Shown here in pieces: positions 12,771 through 63,973 of a DNA stretch of 64,000 bases. A model generated the notes under the pieces. The model saw nothing but the letters and a program-made list of their open reading frames with translations. It made no database searches and had not been told where the DNA came from. Positions within the stretch are counted from its first letter, which is position 1, and every line of letters starts with the position of its first letter. Position numbers and translations under genes: made by a program. Source of the DNA: Candidatus Bathyarchaeota archaeon (GTDB taxonomy: Archaea; Thermoproteota; Bathyarchaeia; Bathyarchaeales; Bathycorpusculaceae). The DNA lies in assembly GCA_963717465.1 (NCBI GenBank), contig OY970340.1:224001-288000 (forward strand). The letters are read 5' to 3'.

Positions 12771-14868
12771 TTATTTGCTTTTGTTGAACTTAAACTTAGC
12801 CAGCTTCAGGGTCGCTGAATTTGTTACAACTGTCAGGCTGCTTATCGCCATGGCTCCAGCCGCGTAAACAGGATTAAGCAATCCTAAGGCAGCAATCGGA
12901 ATCATTACGATGTTGTAACCGAACGCCCAAAACAAATTTGAGTTAATCTTTTGCATAGTTCTTTTACTAAGTTCAATGGCTAAAGCGACATCTTCCAAAT
13001 CATCTTTAATGAGCACAATGCCGCCTGCTTCCTTGGCGATGTCAGTTCCGCTACCAATTGCGATCCCAATGTCAGCTTGAGCTAATGCTGGAGCATCGTT
13101 AATGCCGTCACCAACCATCGCCACAGTCTTGCCCTCAGCTTGCAGCTGCTTGATGACGTCGACTTTTTGCCAAGGCAAGACGTTTGCTATAACCTTTTCA
13201 ATCCCTAGTTGCTTAGCAATCGCTTGTGCAGTTTTCTGATTGTCGCCCGTGAGCATAGCCACTTCAAGATTCATGCTTTTCAACTGGTTCATTGCGGTTG
13301 CTGCGTTTTCTTTCGGGGTATCCATAGCAGCAATTAAACCTACCGCTTGACCGTCAACTGCCAACATCATAACAGTTTTGCCGTTATCCTGCAAAATGGA
13401 CAGGTCATTTTCTAAAACTTCAACGTTGATCTTTTGCTCTTGCATGAGAGCGCGGTTTCCAAGCAGCACTTTTTTGCCGTTCACAGTACACTTTACTCCT
13501 CTGCCGGGCAAGGCTTCAAAGTTGTTGGTCGTGAAAAGCTTCACTTGCTGTTCATTTGCTTTCTTTGTGATGGCGTCTGCCAGCGGATGCTCTGAGCTTT
13601 GTTCCACGGAGCCTGCAAACCGCAATACATCATTTTCGCTGAAGCCTTCGTATGGTTTAATGTCGGTTACTGCGGGTTCGCCTTTAGTTAGTGTTCCAGT
13701 TTTATCGAAAACTACAGTGGTTAGTTTTCTTGCGCGTCCACGTATTCCCCGCTGCGCAGCAAAACTCCATATTCCGCGCCTTTGCCGACACCCGCTAAAA
13801 TGGCAGTGGGAGTTGCAATACCCATTGCACAAGGACAAGAAATTAACAAGACAGCCAACAATGCCAGGAAAGCGGTTGTGAAGCCTCTTGCAAAAAACCA
13901 GTAAGTAAACGAAACAGCGGCGACTGTGAAGATTATTGGTACGAACCATGAAACTATTTTATCAGCGAACTTTTGCACGGGTGCATTGCTGGCTTGTGCT
14001 TCTTCCACTAAATGCACAATTTGCGATAAAGCTGTTTCATCGCCTACTTTGGTAGCTTTAACTGTTAAGGCGCCAGTTTTATTGATGGTTCCGCCGATAA
14101 CAGGGCTGCCTATGGTTTTTTCCACGGGGATGCTTTCGCCGGTGAGCAGCTTTTCATCAACTGACGAGTAGCCCTCAGTTATTTGTCCATCGGTTGGGAT
14201 TTTTTCGCCAGGCTTTACAAGCATGACGATACCAACTTGCACTTCATCGATTGGCACATTGACTTCTTGTCCATCTTTTATAACTCGAGCCATAGTAGGT
14301 TGCAGCTCAAGCAGGGCGCGAATTGAAGCAACTGAACGGCGACGTATGAGCTCTTCGATATATTTACCCAACAAGACAAACGCTAGAATTCCAATCGATA
14401 CTTCAAGATAGCCCGTCCCTGAAGCAAAACGTGGAAAAAAGCTGCTAGTGCCCCATAAGACCAGCCTGCAAGTACACCGGTAGCCACAAGAACATCCATG
14501 TTGACATTGTGATTTCTAAGTGATAGGTAAGCGCCTTTAAGAATGTTAAAGCCAGCATAAAAAACGATTGGAATTGAAATTATAAATATAATAAAATTGT
14601 AAGCTGTTAGTTGCCCGACTAACTCCAAAGCATTTAAAGCTATCAAAAAGCCGAACGCTGAGGCAATTTTTAATCCAGCGGCTGCTATAGCCGCAAGCAG
14701 AGTTAAAGTAACTTTTCTTTGCATCGCTTTTAATTCGCGTTCTGGTGCAGTGTAAACATCAGCGCATTGTTGGCTACAAAAATAGTACGTTCGATCGCCT
14801 ATTTTGCGGCTTATAGCGGTCTCAGTATCCACATCCATGCCGCATACAGGGTCTCGAGCTTTAGCCAT
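12771..14868 (-). CDS. copA: Heavy-metal (Cu-type P1B) P-type ATPase with N-terminal YHS domain; two frameshifts
   Basis: [29 protein letters not shown] and YN motifs across three ORFs. Confidence 0.88.
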
Positions 14869-14969
14869 TCATATTTCCCTTTTTACTTTTAATATACTAG
14901 TTTTAAAGGATATAATATCGATAAGTTAATGATTGAATTACCGATTGAATCGGTCTTTAAAAGATATAT

Positions 14970-14977
14970 TTATTTCG
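14970..14977. repeat. Target-site duplication TTATTTCG (left copy; right copy at 19316-19323)
   Basis: Identical 8-mers abut both terminal inverted repeats. Confidence 0.92.
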
Positions 14978-14982
14978 GGTTC

Positions 14983-15060
14983 TGTTAACTTATTGATGGA
15001 TGGGTTTTTCTGTTAATTGTCGTGGGATAATTTTTCTCCATGTTAACTTTCGTGGGATAA
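14983..15060 (+). repeat. Left subterminal repeat array (TGTTAAnnnTCGTGGGATAA)
   Basis: Copies at 14983 (degenerate, part of the TIR), 15011-15030 and 15041-15060. Confidence 0.9.
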
Positions 15061-15158
15061 ACTAAAGAGCCATTGTAATCAATAGATTAGATTAATATCT
15101 TAATATGAGAAGCCTCAAATAAATATAAAGCAAATAATTGACGTAAGGTTGATTAAAA

Positions 15159-15488
15159 CTGAACCAAGAAGAAGCAATACTTAAAATTTTTACTGATGCT
15201 GAAATAGTTAAACTAAAACAGCATTTAGGTCAAGGTCATTTCATCGATTGCCTTCTTATGCTTGCTTTAAACTGCAATCAATGGGGCACAGCAAAAGAGT
15301 TCGCAGATAAAAACAATTTACCTCTGAGTTTTTATGCTTATAGAGCAAGAATGAAAGAGATTGAAAATCTCGGATATGCAACAAGCAAACCGATTGACCC
15401 TTTAAAAAAATCGTATCAAATAACTGAATCAGGAAAAAAAATCGTTAATTCTCTATTGTTATTTTTTGAGCAATTAAAAAAAGAGTAA
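15159..15488 (+). CDS. Winged-helix DNA-binding protein (start uncertain, about 15149-15258)
   Basis: Frame open from 15153; RARMKEIENLGY...SYQITESGKKI wHTH-type pattern. Confidence 0.7.
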   Translation: MNQEEAILKIFTDAEIVKLKQHLGQGHFIDCLLMLALNCNQWGTAKEFADKNNLPLSFYAYRARMKEIENLGYATSKPIDPLKKSYQITESGKKIVNSLLLFFEQLKKE

Positions 15489-15495
15489 AATAAAA

Positions 15496-16632
15496 TTAAC
15501 TTGATTTTCTGCTTGCATTTTCGATTAGAGTTTTCCACTTGTTTTCTCCTTGAATTTGGATACCGCAAGCTTCGGCGGGAGTTTTTCCTTCTAATGCTTC
15601 ATGGGGTCTGATATAGTTGTGGTAAAGTTGGTAGCCTTTCAAAACTGCCGTTGCATCCATCTTTAAACCCCTCATTGTCTTTTCTCTATCTCTAATTTCA
15701 CCGTTCATGCGTTCCATTTTATTGTTGTTTCTATCGCCTCTAAGTTGGATATGAGCAATATGCTCGGTTCTTGTCTCTTTACATTGTGTCCAAAATTCCT
15801 TTTTGTAAGCATCATGATAAGCTGGAAGACCATCAGTTATGAAGGTCATAGGCTTTTTGCCCATTAATTCTTTAGACATTTTTAGCAAGTTTCTTGCATC
15901 ATGTTTGTCTTTGGTTTCTGCGACTTCTTGGGCAATCCAGAACCTTGTCTCATCATCCATCATAGCAAACAAATATTTCATGTTACCGTTGATTTTGACA
16001 TATAGTTCATCGGCTCTCCAAGTGTCTGAAACATTTGGCTTTATTTTTTCAAGATATTCAGTCATTAAAGCCGTGTACTTAGTTACCCACTTTAAAATTG
16101 ATACGTGACTAATCGTTATTCCTTGAAGCTTTAAGAATTTCTGAACATTTCTAAGACTCTCTCCTGTGAAATATAACTGCATAGCGGAAGTGATAACTTG
16201 CGGCGCAACCCTTGTTTTTTCAAACCCTAAGTTTAATGTAAAGTGTTTTTTGCAATCTTGGCAGAGATAAATTTGGAGATTGCCTTTCTTGTTGTGTCTT
16301 AAGCCGTCTTTGACTATGTTTGATGAACCACATATTTGGCAGTTTTGAAGGTTCAATTCAGGGATAACTTTGTTAACTGCTACTTCAGTTCTCAGTTTAA
16401 TTGAAAGTTCAACAGCAAAAATATGTTTGCATTTTACGTGTCGGTAGGTGTGGTCTGGGCATTCACAGTGCCATTCACTGTCAACCTGATAAATCGCATA
16501 TTCGCCATTTCCCGATTGACTTTTGACTGTGTAAAAGTTCTCTTCAACACGGTTAACTTGACACTCTTTGGCTTTAGCTATTACTAAACCTCTTTCTTCA
16601 CGGATTTGTTCAAGTTTTTCAAGGCTCATCAT
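15496..16632 (-). CDS. IS6-family DDE transposase with N-terminal SWIM finger and Zn ribbon
   Basis: CECPDH...CKH (SWIM), CQICG...CQDC, WRADE / ITDG / NNKMER triad, YHNYIRPH. Confidence 0.92.
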   Translation of the reverse strand: MMSLEKLEQIREERGLVIAKAKECQVNRVEENFYTVKSQSGNGEYAIYQVDSEWHCECPDHTYRHVKCKHIFAVELSIKLRTEVAVNKVIPELNLQNCQICGSSNIVKDGLRHNKKGNLQIYLCQDCKKHFTLNLGFEKTRVAPQVITSAMQLYFTGESLRNVQKFLKLQGITISHVSILKWVTKYTALMTEYLEKIKPNVSDTWRADELYVKINGNMKYLFAMMDDETRFWIAQEVAETKDKHDARNLLKMSKELMGKKPMTFITDGLPAYHDAYKKEFWTQCKETRTEHIAHIQLRGDRNNNKMERMNGEIRDREKTMRGLKMDATAVLKGYQLYHNYIRPHEALEGKTPAEACGIQIQGENKWKTLIENASRKSS

Positions 16633-16635
16633 GTG

Positions 16636-16700
16636 CTTATACCTGTATTGGTATAAGTAGCAACCAAGTATTTAAAGTTATACCATTAAGGGTATAACTT
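16636..16700. promoter_or_regulatory. Twin palindromic operators TTATACC-N6-GGTATAA in the divergent transposase/MTase promoter
   Basis: CTTATACC-tgtatt-GGTATAAG (16636-16657) and AAGTTATACC-attaag-GGTATAACTT (16675-16700) around TATA-like boxes. Confidence 0.8.
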
Positions 16701-16730
16701 ATATACATCTTCTGCTATAATCATAAAATC

Positions 16731-17876
16731 ATGCCAATATCTTACAAAGAAGTAAGCAACACCAAATACATCTATTTTTCTTATTATGATAACGAGCAAA
16801 GAAAAAAAATAGAAATTTACTGTGGAACGGCAAACGACCCTACAGCTATAGAAAAAGCTGAAGCACTTGAAAGCGAACATTTAAAGAAACAAATTTCAAA
16901 TCTCCAACTGCAACTAAAAGAGTACGATACTGGCACAATCAAGAAATCAAGAAAACGAAAGTCCAAAACTGTCAAGCAATCAATACAAGATAATATCGAA
17001 ATGCAAGAATATTTGAGAAATGCAACGCTCTATGACCCTGAAGTTTACTATAAAACAAGCGAACATATGGACGCAGTTCAGGATAATTCAATTCAATTAA
17101 TCGTGACATCGCCGCCATACAACGTAGGAAAAGAATACATTGCTTATGATGATAAAAAAGAGCTTCAAGTTTATCTCGATTTCCTTAACAATGTATGGAT
17201 AGAATGTAAAAAGAAACTATGTAAAGGTGGTCGTATAGCAGTGAACATCGCTGATACTTGGAGAACACCTTACATTCCGTTGCATTGCTACATCACTAAA
17301 CAGCTTGTAGATTTAGGCTTCTTGATGCGTGGTGTTGTCTTTTGGGATAAAGGTGCAAGCGTTGGCATTTCAACAGCATGGGGTTCGTGGCGGTCTGCCT
17401 CTAACCCATGTTTACGAGATGTCGGTGAGTACATACTTATTTTCGCAAAAGATGATTTCAAACTAGAATCAGAAACTAAAATATCAACTATCACAGCAGA
17501 CCAATTCACAACATATACAAAGTCACTATGGACATTTTCAACGGTTCAAAAACCCAAAGATAGTGACCATCCCGCACCATTTCCAGATGAATTACCCAAA
17601 CGTTTGATTTTGCTTTATACCTTTTTAGGTGGAACAGTTCTCGACCCCTTTCTCGGTTCGGGAACAACATGCAAAGTTGCTAAAGCTCTTGGCAGAAAAA
17701 GTATCGGTTACGAGATTGACGAAAGTTATAAGCCTGAGATTGAACTGAAAATTAATAGTGTGAAGTCAATCGGGTTATCACTTGACGCTTTCACTGCAAA
17801 CGGCAAAAAAACACTAAATCAAGATTTGCCTGCTATACCTATTTCCTTAAGGTCAAGTACGAACGATTCAAGCTGA
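16731..17876 (+). CDS. Beta-class amino-DNA methyltransferase (likely N4-cytosine) with an extra N-terminal domain
   Basis: VTSPPY...HPAPFP...LDPFLGSGTT motif order. Confidence 0.92.
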   Translation: MPISYKEVSNTKYIYFSYYDNEQRKKIEIYCGTANDPTAIEKAEALESEHLKKQISNLQLQLKEYDTGTIKKSRKRKSKTVKQSIQDNIEMQEYLRNATLYDPEVYYKTSEHMDAVQDNSIQLIVTSPPYNVGKEYIAYDDKKELQVYLDFLNNVWIECKKKLCKGGRIAVNIADTWRTPYIPLHCYITKQLVDLGFLMRGVVFWDKGASVGISTAWGSWRSASNPCLRDVGEYILIFAKDDFKLESETKISTITADQFTTYTKSLWTFSTVQKPKDSDHPAPFPDELPKRLILLYTFLGGTVLDPFLGSGTTCKVAKALGRKSIGYEIDESYKPEIELKINSVKSIGLSLDAFTANGKKTLNQDLPAIPISLRSSTNDSS

Positions 17877-18514
17877 CTTTTCTTTGTAACATCATAAATT
17901 GCTTTTACAGTAGCATTTCTATAGCCATGCAAGTGGTTTGGTATAGCATTAGTTACGATAAAGAAGTGACCTTTTGGGAAACGTTCATTCCATTTTTTAG
18001 CGTTTGCAAAAGCTTTTTTCTCTGTGTCTGAGCGCATCATTCCAGGTCTGTCTAGATGTGAGTGTGTTCCATCAGGATTTATAATATAGTCTGGTGACCC
18101 CTTTGCTTCTATCACCACATCAGTTTTTATCTCTAAATCATAAAGCCTAGTTACGTCAGAAGTAGGTCGTGCCGTTATCCCAAAATTCTTATTTAGAAGT
18201 AACCAAAATGCCCATTGGAATTCTTCACCAACATATGTGGCACGAGCTTGAAAAGTGGCTACTTCGTAAACATATCTTTCTCCGCATACTGGACAGGTAT
18301 CGGGTTTATCGCCCCACCCATATGAAAATTTTTTTAGTTCCATACATCTAACACAAACCCAACATTTATACAATGCCATAGCTTTGCAAATATTGTTGAA
18401 GCAACTTGTAAAATATCGTGAAAGTGAATCGTTTGTCATACCATTTTTTTCGATAATATCATAATTTTGTTTCGCTACTGTCAAGTATGGTGTAGCTGAT
18501 TCAGGAACTGACAT
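17819..18514 (-). CDS. Putative type II restriction endonuclease (PD-(D/E)XK, Zn ribbon)
   Basis: CVRC...CPVC, GEEF, YDLE...IEAKGS; convergent with and overlapping the MTase. Confidence 0.7.
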   Translation of the reverse strand: MSVPESATPYLTVAKQNYDIIEKNGMTNDSLSRYFTSCFNNICKAMALYKCWVCVRCMELKKFSYGWGDKPDTCPVCGERYVYEVATFQARATYVGEEFQWAFWLLLNKNFGITARPTSDVTRLYDLEIKTDVVIEAKGSPDYIINPDGTHSHLDRPGMMRSDTEKKAFANAKKWNERFPKGHFFIVTNAIPNHLHGYRNATVKAIYDVTKKSQLESFVLDLKEIGIAGKS

Positions 18515-18626
18515 AATTCACTTATTAATGACCTATTGATATTTAAAACTAATCAAATAAAAACAAACGTATAAACATAAGAAACGATAAATAATCAATT
18601 AAATGTAGTTTGGCGAGAGGGTTATC

Positions 18627-18908
18627 TTGTCAGTTTACAAAAGAAAACTTAGACAGAGTGAAGCTGAAAGATATTTTATTTATGTTGAAGCATCAGTTCG
18701 TAAAATGTTTCCTAAACCACTCGTAAAATTTTCCGTTTTAGTTAATGGTAAATCATTCGATGCTAGGATTGACGCTAGATGGCGTATTTGGGCTAACTAT
18801 TTCTGGAATTCACTATCATCATTCAAAGAGGGTGATATGGTCACTATTGAAAAAACTGCCAATCGTGCTTTTACTGTTTCGGTGAATCCTGCTGAGAATG
18901 TTCACTAG
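18627..18908 (+). CDS. Small protein, putative B3/EcoRII-N-like DNA-binding pseudobarrel (paralog 1)
   Basis: KLRQSE..RYFIYV....RKMFP...GKSF...RIW...GDMVTIEK; paralogous to 18871-19176. Confidence 0.6.
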   Translation: MSVYKRKLRQSEAERYFIYVEASVRKMFPKPLVKFSVLVNGKSFDARIDARWRIWANYFWNSLSSFKEGDMVTIEKTANRAFTVSVNPAENVH

Positions 18909-19176
18909 CTAACCCAAGTCTATTTTTGTCTCTTTTTGTAAAAATTACGACTTGGTAAGGCTTCATGTTAATGCAATCCTTTATCATATTGGCATTTATC
19001 CATATTCTTCCATAAGCGTCTAAGTTAGCTTGAAATTCTTTTTTACCAATTATTATCGTAAATTTTTCATTTAAATCAGGAAACATCGAACGGGCAGTAT
19101 CGACAACGTATATGTACCCTCGCGATGATTCCGAGGTTGAAAGTACCTTCCGATAATATTCTAGCATCTTTCTCAA
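18871..19176 (-). CDS. Small protein, putative B3/EcoRII-N-like DNA-binding pseudobarrel (paralog 2)
   Basis: KVLSTSE..RGYIYV....RSMFP...KKEF...RIW; ATG at 19167. Confidence 0.6.
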   Translation of the reverse strand: MRKMLEYYRKVLSTSESSRGYIYVVDTARSMFPDLNEKFTIIIGKKEFQANLDAYGRIWINANMIKDCINMKPYQVVIFTKRDKNRLGLASEHSQQDSPKQ

Positions 19177-19220
19177 GTATTTAACAAAACTAAAATATTA
19201 AATTATTTCATCAAACCCAA

Positions 19221-19310
19221 TTATCCCACGATTGTTAACAGTTAAATCAGGCTATAGTAGCCTATCCCACGACCTTTAACATGAACCCCAAATCCCATGA
19301 CAAGTTAACA
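19221..19310 (-). repeat. Right subterminal repeat array
   Basis: Minus-strand TGTTAACAATCGTGGGATAA (19221-19240), TGTTAAAGGTCGTGGGATAG (19262-19281), TGTTAACTTGTCATGGGATT (19291-19310). Confidence 0.9.
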
Positions 19311-19518
19311 GAACCTTATTTCGGGGCAAAAGCCAAAAATGAAATGAGTAACAGCAAAAAAATTAAACTAAAAACCTGTAATGAGCAAATGCAGAAAAGC
19401 AACAGCTAATTTCACGATTGGTTCCATTTAGAATTACCCCTGCTTAGTGAGTTGCTAAAGCATTTAATTACATGCCTAATGATTGGAATTCAGGCGATTT
19501 TTCTCAGGAATAAAGCCG

Positions 19519-63313: not shown

Positions 63314-63973
63314 TTACTTTCGTTTATTTTGAAGGCGCTTTATTGTTCTTTCAAAGTTTAGTTTGAATGGCACTGGTTTGCCGTAAGCTGTGCATTTTTT
63401 GTTGAGGATTGCTTTAGTTATGGCTTCAAGGTTTGGCTCGGCTTCGATGACAGTGTACCCGCAGCCGATGGCTGGTCCGTAATGAGCGTCAGTGCCGCCG
63501 ACTGTTGGAAGACCAAGTTTTTCTGCGACTTCAGTTGCTTTCCTCTTGCTGTAGTTAAATGGGAAGGCTGAAGCGTTTATGGTTTCGATTGCATCAAATT
63601 TGCTTGTTACATGTTTGTTAAGGCTTCCTTTGAACAGAGCGTAAGGGTGACAGGCAACGGCTAATCCGCCTGCTTCATGTATTCTGTCCACTGTTTCTTG
63701 CGCAGTTAAGCCTCGTGGAATTAATGTTTCAAGGTTAAGAGCAACTATATGTCCGTCTGCGCTTGAAACCTCCATGCCTGGAATAACGAGAAAATCTGTT
63801 TCCTTAGCAATCTTAAGCGCGCCCTCAATTGTATTGTGGTCTGTTACTGCTACTGCGTTTAACCCGTTCTTTTTCGCGTAAAAAATTAGTTCTTTCGGCG
63901 TGATTAGTGAATCTGAAGAATAATTCGTGTGCACATGGAGGTCGGCGACGACGGGCAATGTTTTTAGCCTCAT
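63314..63973 (-). CDS. PHP domain metal-dependent phosphoesterase
   Basis: DLHVHT..S.D, VTDHN, GME, GTDAH. Confidence 0.92.
   Translation of the reverse strand: MRLKTLPVVADLHVHTNYSSDSLITPKELIFYAKKNGLNAVAVTDHNTIEGALKIAKETDFLVIPGMEVSSADGHIVALNLETLIPRGLTAQETVDRIHEAGGLAVACHPYALFKGSLNKHVTSKFDAIETINASAFPFNYSKRKATEVAEKLGLPTVGGTDAHYGPAIGCGYTVIEAEPNLEAITKAILNKKCTAYGKPVPFKLNFERTIKRLQNKRK

Follow-up and report, generated by a model that had tools for sequence, protein, structure and literature searches.

The locus presented here raises the question of why a transposon with an IS6-like core should carry an array of repeats at each of its ends, and which protein reads them. IS6/IS26 elements are described with one short TIR and one HTH, whereas the lineage examined here joins an IS6-like core to multi-site ends in the style of IS21 and Tn7 and has no helper ATPase. 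The element is an IS6-like cargo transposon at positions 14978-19315 (4338 bp) of the window, the whole stretch of 64,000 nucleotides of archaeal DNA that was analysed. It is flanked by an exact 8-bp target duplication, and the same 14-base tip opens and closes it. The left end lies downstream and the right end upstream of the transposase gene. The limits and end repeats are:

14970..14977, plus strand: left copy of the target-site duplication, 8 bp, identical to 19316-19323
14978..15003, plus strand: left tip, with the GG terminus and the tip site (A box 14983-14988, 4-nt gap, worn B box from 14993)
15011..15030, plus strand: left site 2 (A box, 3-nt gap, B box), 28 bp inside the tip site
15041..15060, plus strand: left site 3, 30 bp inside site 2
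19221..19240, minus strand: right site 3, 41 bp inside site 2
19262..19281, minus strand: right site 2, 29 bp inside the tip site
19290..19315, minus strand: right tip, with the GG terminus and the tip site (A box 19310-19305, 4-nt gap, B box)
19316..19323, plus strand: right copy of the target-site duplication, identical to 14970-14977

Each end holds two strong two-part internal sites, in which 3 nt separate an A box from a B box, and a degenerate copy at the tip, where the gap is 4 nt. An earlier note on this DNA had proposed three copies of one consensus per end, the outermost being part of the TIR. That consensus recurs without mismatch at 15011 and 15041 (plus strand) and at 19221-19240 (minus strand), and with one mismatch at 19262-19281 (minus strand). 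A scan of the window allowing up to three mismatches returned five matches where 0.17 are expected by chance, and the fifth, at 63704 with three mismatches, is probably a chance match. The outermost copies did not match the consensus at three mismatches, because their gap has four nucleotides and their second half is worn; read from the sequence, 6 of 11 letters of the tip B box agree at the left end and 8 of 11 at the right. The claim of three copies per end thus holds for the four internal copies and for the reality of both tip copies, but not for the fit of the tips to the consensus, and the proposed spacings, 28 and 30 bp at the left and 29 and 41 bp at the right, were borne out. The note had also called for a genome scan; in the whole 3.05-Mb genome, the 19-nt form of the motif has exact matches only at the four internal sites of the element.

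The genes carried between the ends are:

15153..15488, plus strand: winged-HTH-like (wHTH-like) passenger frame of uncertain start; the ATG at 15258 gives 76 aa
15496..16632, minus strand: transposase, 378 aa (PF13610, E 2.9e-17, and a weak SWIM match)
16731..17876, plus strand: passenger N4C/N6A DNA methyltransferase (PF01555, E 5.8e-45; PADLOC MTase_II, E 3.4e-84)
17819..18514, minus strand: passenger of 231 aa, converging on the methyltransferase
18627..18908, plus strand: passenger of 93 aa (Atlas: unnamed archaeal clusters at 0.92, EcoRII-N clusters at 0.84)
18871..19176, minus strand: passenger of 101 aa, B3-like according to the earlier note

The wHTH, the 231-aa nuclease-like protein and the two small proteins are each found in a single one of 111 elements of the family. 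The wHTH-like frame had no Pfam match; in the Atlas it resembles archaeal hxlR/ArnR1-like wHTH clusters at 0.95. For the 231-aa and 101-aa passengers, neither Pfam nor PADLOC gave a significant match. Judged from position only, the 231-aa protein is possibly the restriction nuclease of the methyltransferase, and the apparent B3/EcoRII-N likeness of the 93-aa passenger is a lead only. The methyltransferase and transposase genes are arranged head-to-head, the methyltransferase taking the place that a small AbrB/MazE-like gene occupies in other elements, and the N-terminal extension of the methyltransferase (16731-16950) also matches a separate small frame in the relative L295 (38%, 61 aa). Outside the element, a heavy-metal P-type ATPase-like gene (12771-14868, minus strand; motifs recognized by eye) has its start some 110 bp outside the left end and is broken up into three frames, through either sequencing error or decay after the insertion.

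Relatives of the element were collected in three sets. The first comprised 79 genome loci and four copies from this genome, of which 53 had a TIR pair with an 8-bp duplication; the other 30 of the 83 were dropped for want of such a pair, and 23 of these still show a two-site end. A second batch gave 17 elements from 40 regions of relatives, with 23 dropped (two duplicates, the rest with no pairs or spurious ones). The resulting 70 related elements measure 2.1-12.1 kb and encode transposases 34-80% identical to that of the window, and the exact 8-bp duplication is present in 69 of the 70, which had been selected on it. The third, a metagenome and viral set, contributed 43 loci with full ends out of 84 (41 dropped). 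The family is hosted by Bathyarchaeia, Nitrososphaeria and Asgard-type archaea. Full-length family transposases also occur on viral contigs (L389-L394), two of which, L391 and L392, are complete elements with arrays.

Internal sites are a property of these ends. When the tip of each element was used as a probe for internal copies with a 3-nt gap, 98 matches were found in 106 ends against 3 in 103 flanks. By the shared-site score, 68 of the 70 elements, all but L295 and L299, lay above the 99th percentile of shuffles, with 0 inverted matches and 3 flank matches, and the 43 elements of the third set passed the site test without exception. The motif is therefore kept at the ends of homologous elements, as the earlier note had required of it, and the same note was right that canonical IS6 ends lack such arrays, in so far as internal sites above the shuffle threshold were found in 0 of 14 bacterial IS6 end pairs. 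These controls were 12 end pairs from 11 loci (IS1216, IS257, IS6100, ISS1, IS240-like, rhizobial and one long clostridial) and two more long ones; they are all bacterial, and L310, among the short Sulfolobales-type and halophile IS6 ends tried, gave no clear ends. A scan of the viral collection with the published 14-base IS6 consensus returned 120 stretches, the 80 listed holding a single match each, and did not serve as a control. The distant relatives L300, L301, L307, L299 and L309 (frames of 360-470 aa) have longer TIRs and repeated sites at a spacing of about 20 bp; in the 450-aa members L300, L301 and L307 the repeats at shorter spacing were seen by eye, with only L307 above the threshold. 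These are possibly a sister family with another array geometry.

A site consists of an A box (TG and four partly variable bases), a free gap and a B box that is specific to the element. Sites in the family face inward only, and the two ends of one element agree at the A and B boxes and much less in the gap. Whole ends measure 50-130 bp and contain 2-4 sites. Two sites per end is the family rule and three is a trait of the clade of the window element: in a count of 109 elements, two sites per end were found in 95, at least three at both ends in 13, and a mixed state in one. As a general feature, the three copies of the earlier note accordingly shrink to a clade trait (13/109). Ten of the three-site elements, including that of the window, form one clade (SH-aLRT 97 in a quick tree), with L250 outside it. 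The 4-nt gap at the tip site is likewise a family rule (202 of 212 ends).

The spacings of the sites fall in steps of about one helical turn. Over 210 ends the distance from the tip to the second site was 26-29 bp (148 ends), 37-39 bp (54) or 46-49 bp (8), with none between; these classes step by 9-10 bp and not by 10.5, and 14 of 105 elements have a different class at each end. From the second to the third site the distances were 30-32, 40-42 and 51-53 bp, with a resultant of 0.95 at 10.5 bp (29 intervals).

Which protein could read such sites is suggested by the gene content, since the transposase is the only protein common to all 53 clustered elements. From a model and the family alignment, the transposase appears to be laid out as a SWIM zinc finger (residues ~24-88), a C4 zinc ribbon with a three-strand sheet (96-136), a tri-helical HTH (140-194) and a DDE core (D208/D267/E307); the AlphaFold2 model has a pLDDT of 86. 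All 61 aligned members match PF13610, 53 match SWIM and 9 match Zn_ribbon_InsA. Of the ribbon cysteines, C98, C101 and C124 are invariant in the family alignment and C127 is nearly so. D267 and E307 are 40 residues apart and the core aligns to integrase cores without insertion; E307 is followed by R314 without DH, so that the strict IS26 signature E-DH--K is absent. The top Foldseek match of the transposase was the solved ISCth4 (VIA Z 12.7, rmsd 7.2, 245 aligned), and in a fold search with the ribbon-plus-HTH model the matches listed cover the HTH only (residues 51-106 of the piece), none of those listed falling on the ribbon.

Further evidence comes from co-change between transposase residues and site bases. 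In a blind scan, 378 transposase columns were compared with 18 motif positions against a branch-rate-aware null, with changes mapped on the transposase tree; four of 66-70 elements were dropped (score under 31) and the rules were fixed on 66. Ten pairs passed a per-position family-wise threshold of p<0.05, each of them in the domain that fits: the A box paired with the HTH (A4-Q164, A5-S175, A6-V177/Q164/K181) and the B box with the zinc ribbon (B3-R112, B4-T132/I121, B5-H130, B7-D109). The scan gave no partner for the three spacer or the two flanking positions, and no significant partner for B1, B2, B6, B8, B9 and A3. Residue 121 is R with G and K, V or I with T in 103 of 104 elements, and Q at residue 177 goes with A or C in 99 of 100.

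These rules also predict. In 39 held-out elements, one-residue rules gave 546 of 624 bases correctly, against 439 for the nearest relative, judged outside the ribbon and HTH domains, and 426 for the majority base, the sites not being independent of each other; L313, L315, L325 and L372 were dropped. The rule failed at B6, with 36 of 78 against 43 for the nearest relative. On a tree built without ribbon and HTH, independent pairs gave R121 with G 10:0 (p 0.002), Q177 with A/C 14:0 (p 0.0001), Y130 with C about 10:0, K177 with C about 7:0 and a fifth at 5:0, while H109-B7 reached only p 0.06; the choice of these pairs came from the training scan, and training elements are among those counted, with the truncated L056 left out. 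Simple linkage would be an unlikely cause of the co-change, as the ends lie up to kilobases from the transposase gene. We conclude that the repeats are very probably binding sites for the transposase of the element itself, with the A box predicted to be read by the HTH and the B box by the zinc ribbon. As site bases track transposase residues across about 100 relatives, each element would carry a matched lock and key.

The genome itself holds three intact elements, with three different B boxes. The two further intact elements (G000:C1:1246698-1250326 and 2805162-2812638; 3.6 and 7.5 kb) both carry methyltransferase or restriction-modification cargo. A non-autonomous derivative of 684 bp (G000:C1:30324-31007) has the same B-box type as the window element and an exact 8-bp duplication; one of its ends has the tip site only, followed by a C-terminal fragment of the transposase, and the other has two sites. 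Orphan, decaying family ends lie at G000:C1:2317115, 828450 and 829114 (all minus strand), and a transposase copy with an internal stop and without paired ends at G000:C1:2012799-2013914.

The inner sites are the better matched ones. The core of the second site fits the code of its own transposase at 6.7-6.8 of 7, better than the tip sites, and the B core of the tip scores 4.5 of 7 where there are three sites and 5.9 of 7 where there are two. As the three-site elements are one clade plus one, this link to a weak tip is a single evolutionary observation. Nine transposase residues are candidates for being typical of the three-site clade, all from that one clade. Regional identities of L250 (to L043, 0.76 in the ribbon and 0.80 in the HTH; to L254, 0.70 in the core) suggest a swap of the binding module, which was not established, because the three-site state needs two changes on both the binding-domain and the core trees.

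With the transposase as the reader of the sites, a multi-protomer complex, such as the earlier note had proposed, would be a reasonable reading by analogy. One protomer would occupy each site with the HTH outward and the ribbon inward, so that two protomers (three in the clade of the window element) would load per end, phased by about one helical turn. The transpososome would then have four or more subunits, as in IS21; cleavage would fall to the protomers at the tips, and the inner protomers would hold the ends. The tetramer is an analogy to IS21 only, because ISCth4, the nearest solved relative, acts as a dimer and has one bipartite site per end. At the tip, the additional base of the gap may permit a bend like that near the TGT in ISCth4. 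With less certainty, the third site may make up for the weakened tip site, and the differing site codes may keep co-resident elements off each other's ends. The single insertions flanked by target duplications fit either resolved cointegrates or simple insertion.

Binding by the transposase leaves more than one role for the inner sites. They could serve control, as operators or sinks in self-repression, block of read-through or immunity, with a tip dimer doing the chemistry; the co-change tells who reads the sites and not why, and a dimer with one bipartite site is all that ISCth4 needs (PMC7780238). We consider this unlikely, given that the sites are kept equally at both ends, next to any neighbour gene and up to 9.7 kb from the transposase start, that their spacing is quantised, that three-site elements have their weakest site in the tip B box, and that IS21 integration needs both repeats (PMC10122671). 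The reason offered in the earlier note, that extra sites evolved to pair ends across long cargo, appears no more probable. Three-site elements are indeed longer (median 5375 against 3206 bp, n 13 and 95), and methyltransferase or type IIG-like restriction-modification cargo is found in 11 of the 13 against 23 of 111 overall. Yet 13 two-site elements reach at least 5 kb, among them the longest (12.1, 8.1 and 7.6 kb), one three-site element has only 2.5 kb, two sites per end are present even in the smallest elements (2.1 kb), and supported branches offer one independent pair (p 1), so the proposal is unsupported. At the level of the family, an association of arrays with cargo is possible, because all elements found carry passengers and exceed 2.1 kb and the cargo-free bacterial IS6 elements tested have no arrays.

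Other readings deny the transposase its part. The earlier note had named the wHTH and B3-like proteins as possible binders, and a passenger of this kind, an AbrB/MazE-like protein or a host factor might bind the repeats; small AbrB/MazE-like genes do lie upstream of the transposase in some elements (F2 in 7 of 53, F7 in 3 of 53) and the spacers are mildly T-rich (0.33). This is very improbable, since the genes for the wHTH and both B3-like proteins occur in one of 111 elements, the motif varies among elements within one genome, which a host factor would not follow, and its bases track transposase residues. Still less credit is due to the repeats being relics of nested insertion or end duplication with no present role, the co-change coming from shared ancestry. 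Lone foreign-type sites do lie behind some ends (L007, L009 and L025), and a complete end of a different family member is found inside 15 of 111 elements, often within 70-150 bp of their own end (L008, L009, L011, L017, L020, L036, L077, L079, L252, L313, L320, L335, L339, L341 and L367); insertion of one element next to or into another may thus be a way for them to grow. The relic reading is nevertheless largely refuted: inner sites fit the code of their own transposase better than the tips do, A and B boxes agree between ends where the gap does not, positions are fixed, and the residue-base link survives independent pairs.

Binding by the transposase hence remains the preferred reading. A wider proposal, which we find plausible and put forward tentatively, is a separate and widespread family of archaeal transposons that would work without an ATPase, through a transpososome of four to six subunits on phased arrays, and that would have diversified, through a code of nearly one residue per base in HTH and ribbon, into many pairs of transposase and ends that are blind to one another. 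The SWIM domain is a candidate for target choice. In the rebuilt empty sites, a TATA-like hexamer lies 9-15 bp from the start of the duplication in 29 of 109, with a peak at 13 bp, against 3-7 in other 7-bp windows; the flank of the window element (14950-14977) is among the 29.

A published description of the end arrays or of the residue-base code was not found; ISfinder entries, supplements and subscription papers were outside the search and may hold members or their ends. The word "subterminal" has 0 occurrences in both IS6 reviews (PMC6807381, PMC7986276), and "IS6" is absent from the main text of PMC11529989 and PMC13343696, where italic spelling may hide matches. Composite-type cargo transposons were listed by Krupovic 2019 (PMC6563490) as so far unseen in archaea. 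A residue-base code would give exact and cheap predictions of how a DDE transposase changes its end specificity, a question that comparison can seldom address, the available relatives usually being too scarce or too similar. The family offers candidate natural transposase-end pairs that do not cross-react and that move 2-12 kb, often with restriction-modification genes; if true, the code would be readable from sequence and rewritable, opening the way to orthogonal cargo-delivery transposases.

Among known systems, the IS6/IS26 family is the closest in its core. The first nine bases of the element equal the published IS6 consensus, and the PF13610 DDE core, the tri-helical HTH, the GG tip, TGT at positions 6-8 and the 8-bp duplication are shared (PMC7986276, PMC6807381). 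By the broad description of IS6 in Varani 2021 (PMC7986276), the element has the DDE_Tnp_IS240-type core with HTH, the GG tip with cTGTt and the 8-bp duplication, but it lacks a short 15-20 bp IR as the whole end and the caaa motif, and positions 9-14 differ. It falls outside the strict IS26 family of Harmer and Hall 2019 (PMC6807381), who aligned only the first 20 nt of each end, as it has no E-DH--K, A and not G at position 10, and a long transposase. The HTH of IS26 recognises the TIR (Pong 2021, PMC8477213). Compared with IS26, IS257, IS1216, IS6100, ISS1 and IS240, the transposase here is longer (378 aa against about 230 aa) and has SWIM and zinc ribbon, one end pair encloses 2-12 kb including passengers, and 2-4 bipartite sites stand in place of one 14-bp TIR. 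Passengers inside one end pair with a single transposase are also what defines a tIS, of which Varani 2021 lists one in IS6, ISDsp3 (PMC7986276).

The best plasmid matches (29-34% identity) belong to the ISCpe7 group, long clostridial IS6-like elements of clade h of Varani, which have a CxxC zinc finger N-terminal to the HTH, a similar tip core and, in L407 and L408, an exact 8-bp duplication. They differ in being cargo-free elements of about 1.27 kb, and the alignment stops short of the SWIM region; internal site copies were absent from the three of three tested (scores 24-26). The clade is characterized by 340-350 aa, 1.2-1.5 kb and outermost bases that are rarely complementary, against SWIM, 2.1-12.1 kb and GG tips here.

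For the binding modules, ISCth4 (IS256) offers the same order of N-terminal module, second DNA-binding domain, HTH and DDE; its HTH contacts bp 7-11 and its N-terminal domain bp 14-25 (Kosek 2020, PMC7780238, PDB 6XG8), near the A box at bp 6-11 and the B box at about 16-24 here. It differs in one bipartite site per end, a dimer, and a helical insertion domain, with 107 residues from the second D to E against 40 here (PMC7780238). The insertion domain with CxxH between second D and E that marks IS256 is absent, and the second binding domain here is a zinc ribbon, unlike that of ISCth4. IS1, whose transposase is made by frameshifting, is short and free of cargo, has no SWIM domain and belongs to a different catalytic family. 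Its InsAB' needs zinc finger and HTH for end binding (PMC12903888), and Zn_ribbon_InsA is the domain matched by 9 of 61 members here.

The arrays themselves recall IS21 (IstA/IstB), Tn7/TnsB, Tn5053 and Mu, where several direct repeats per end each serve a two-domain binding module; here, binding by the transposase is suggested by co-change. IstA of IS21 needs two repeats and forms a tetramer (Spinola-Amilibia 2023, PMC10122671). Those systems have an AAA+ ATPase partner, CA-3' ends and two HTHs in a different transposase family, whereas the present elements have GG...CC ends and an HTH with a zinc ribbon, and an ATPase partner common to the elements was not found among the 53 clustered. The array would work like the ends of IS21, Tn7 and Mu, with binding modules apparently built like those of ISCth4 and IS1, on an IS6-like core.
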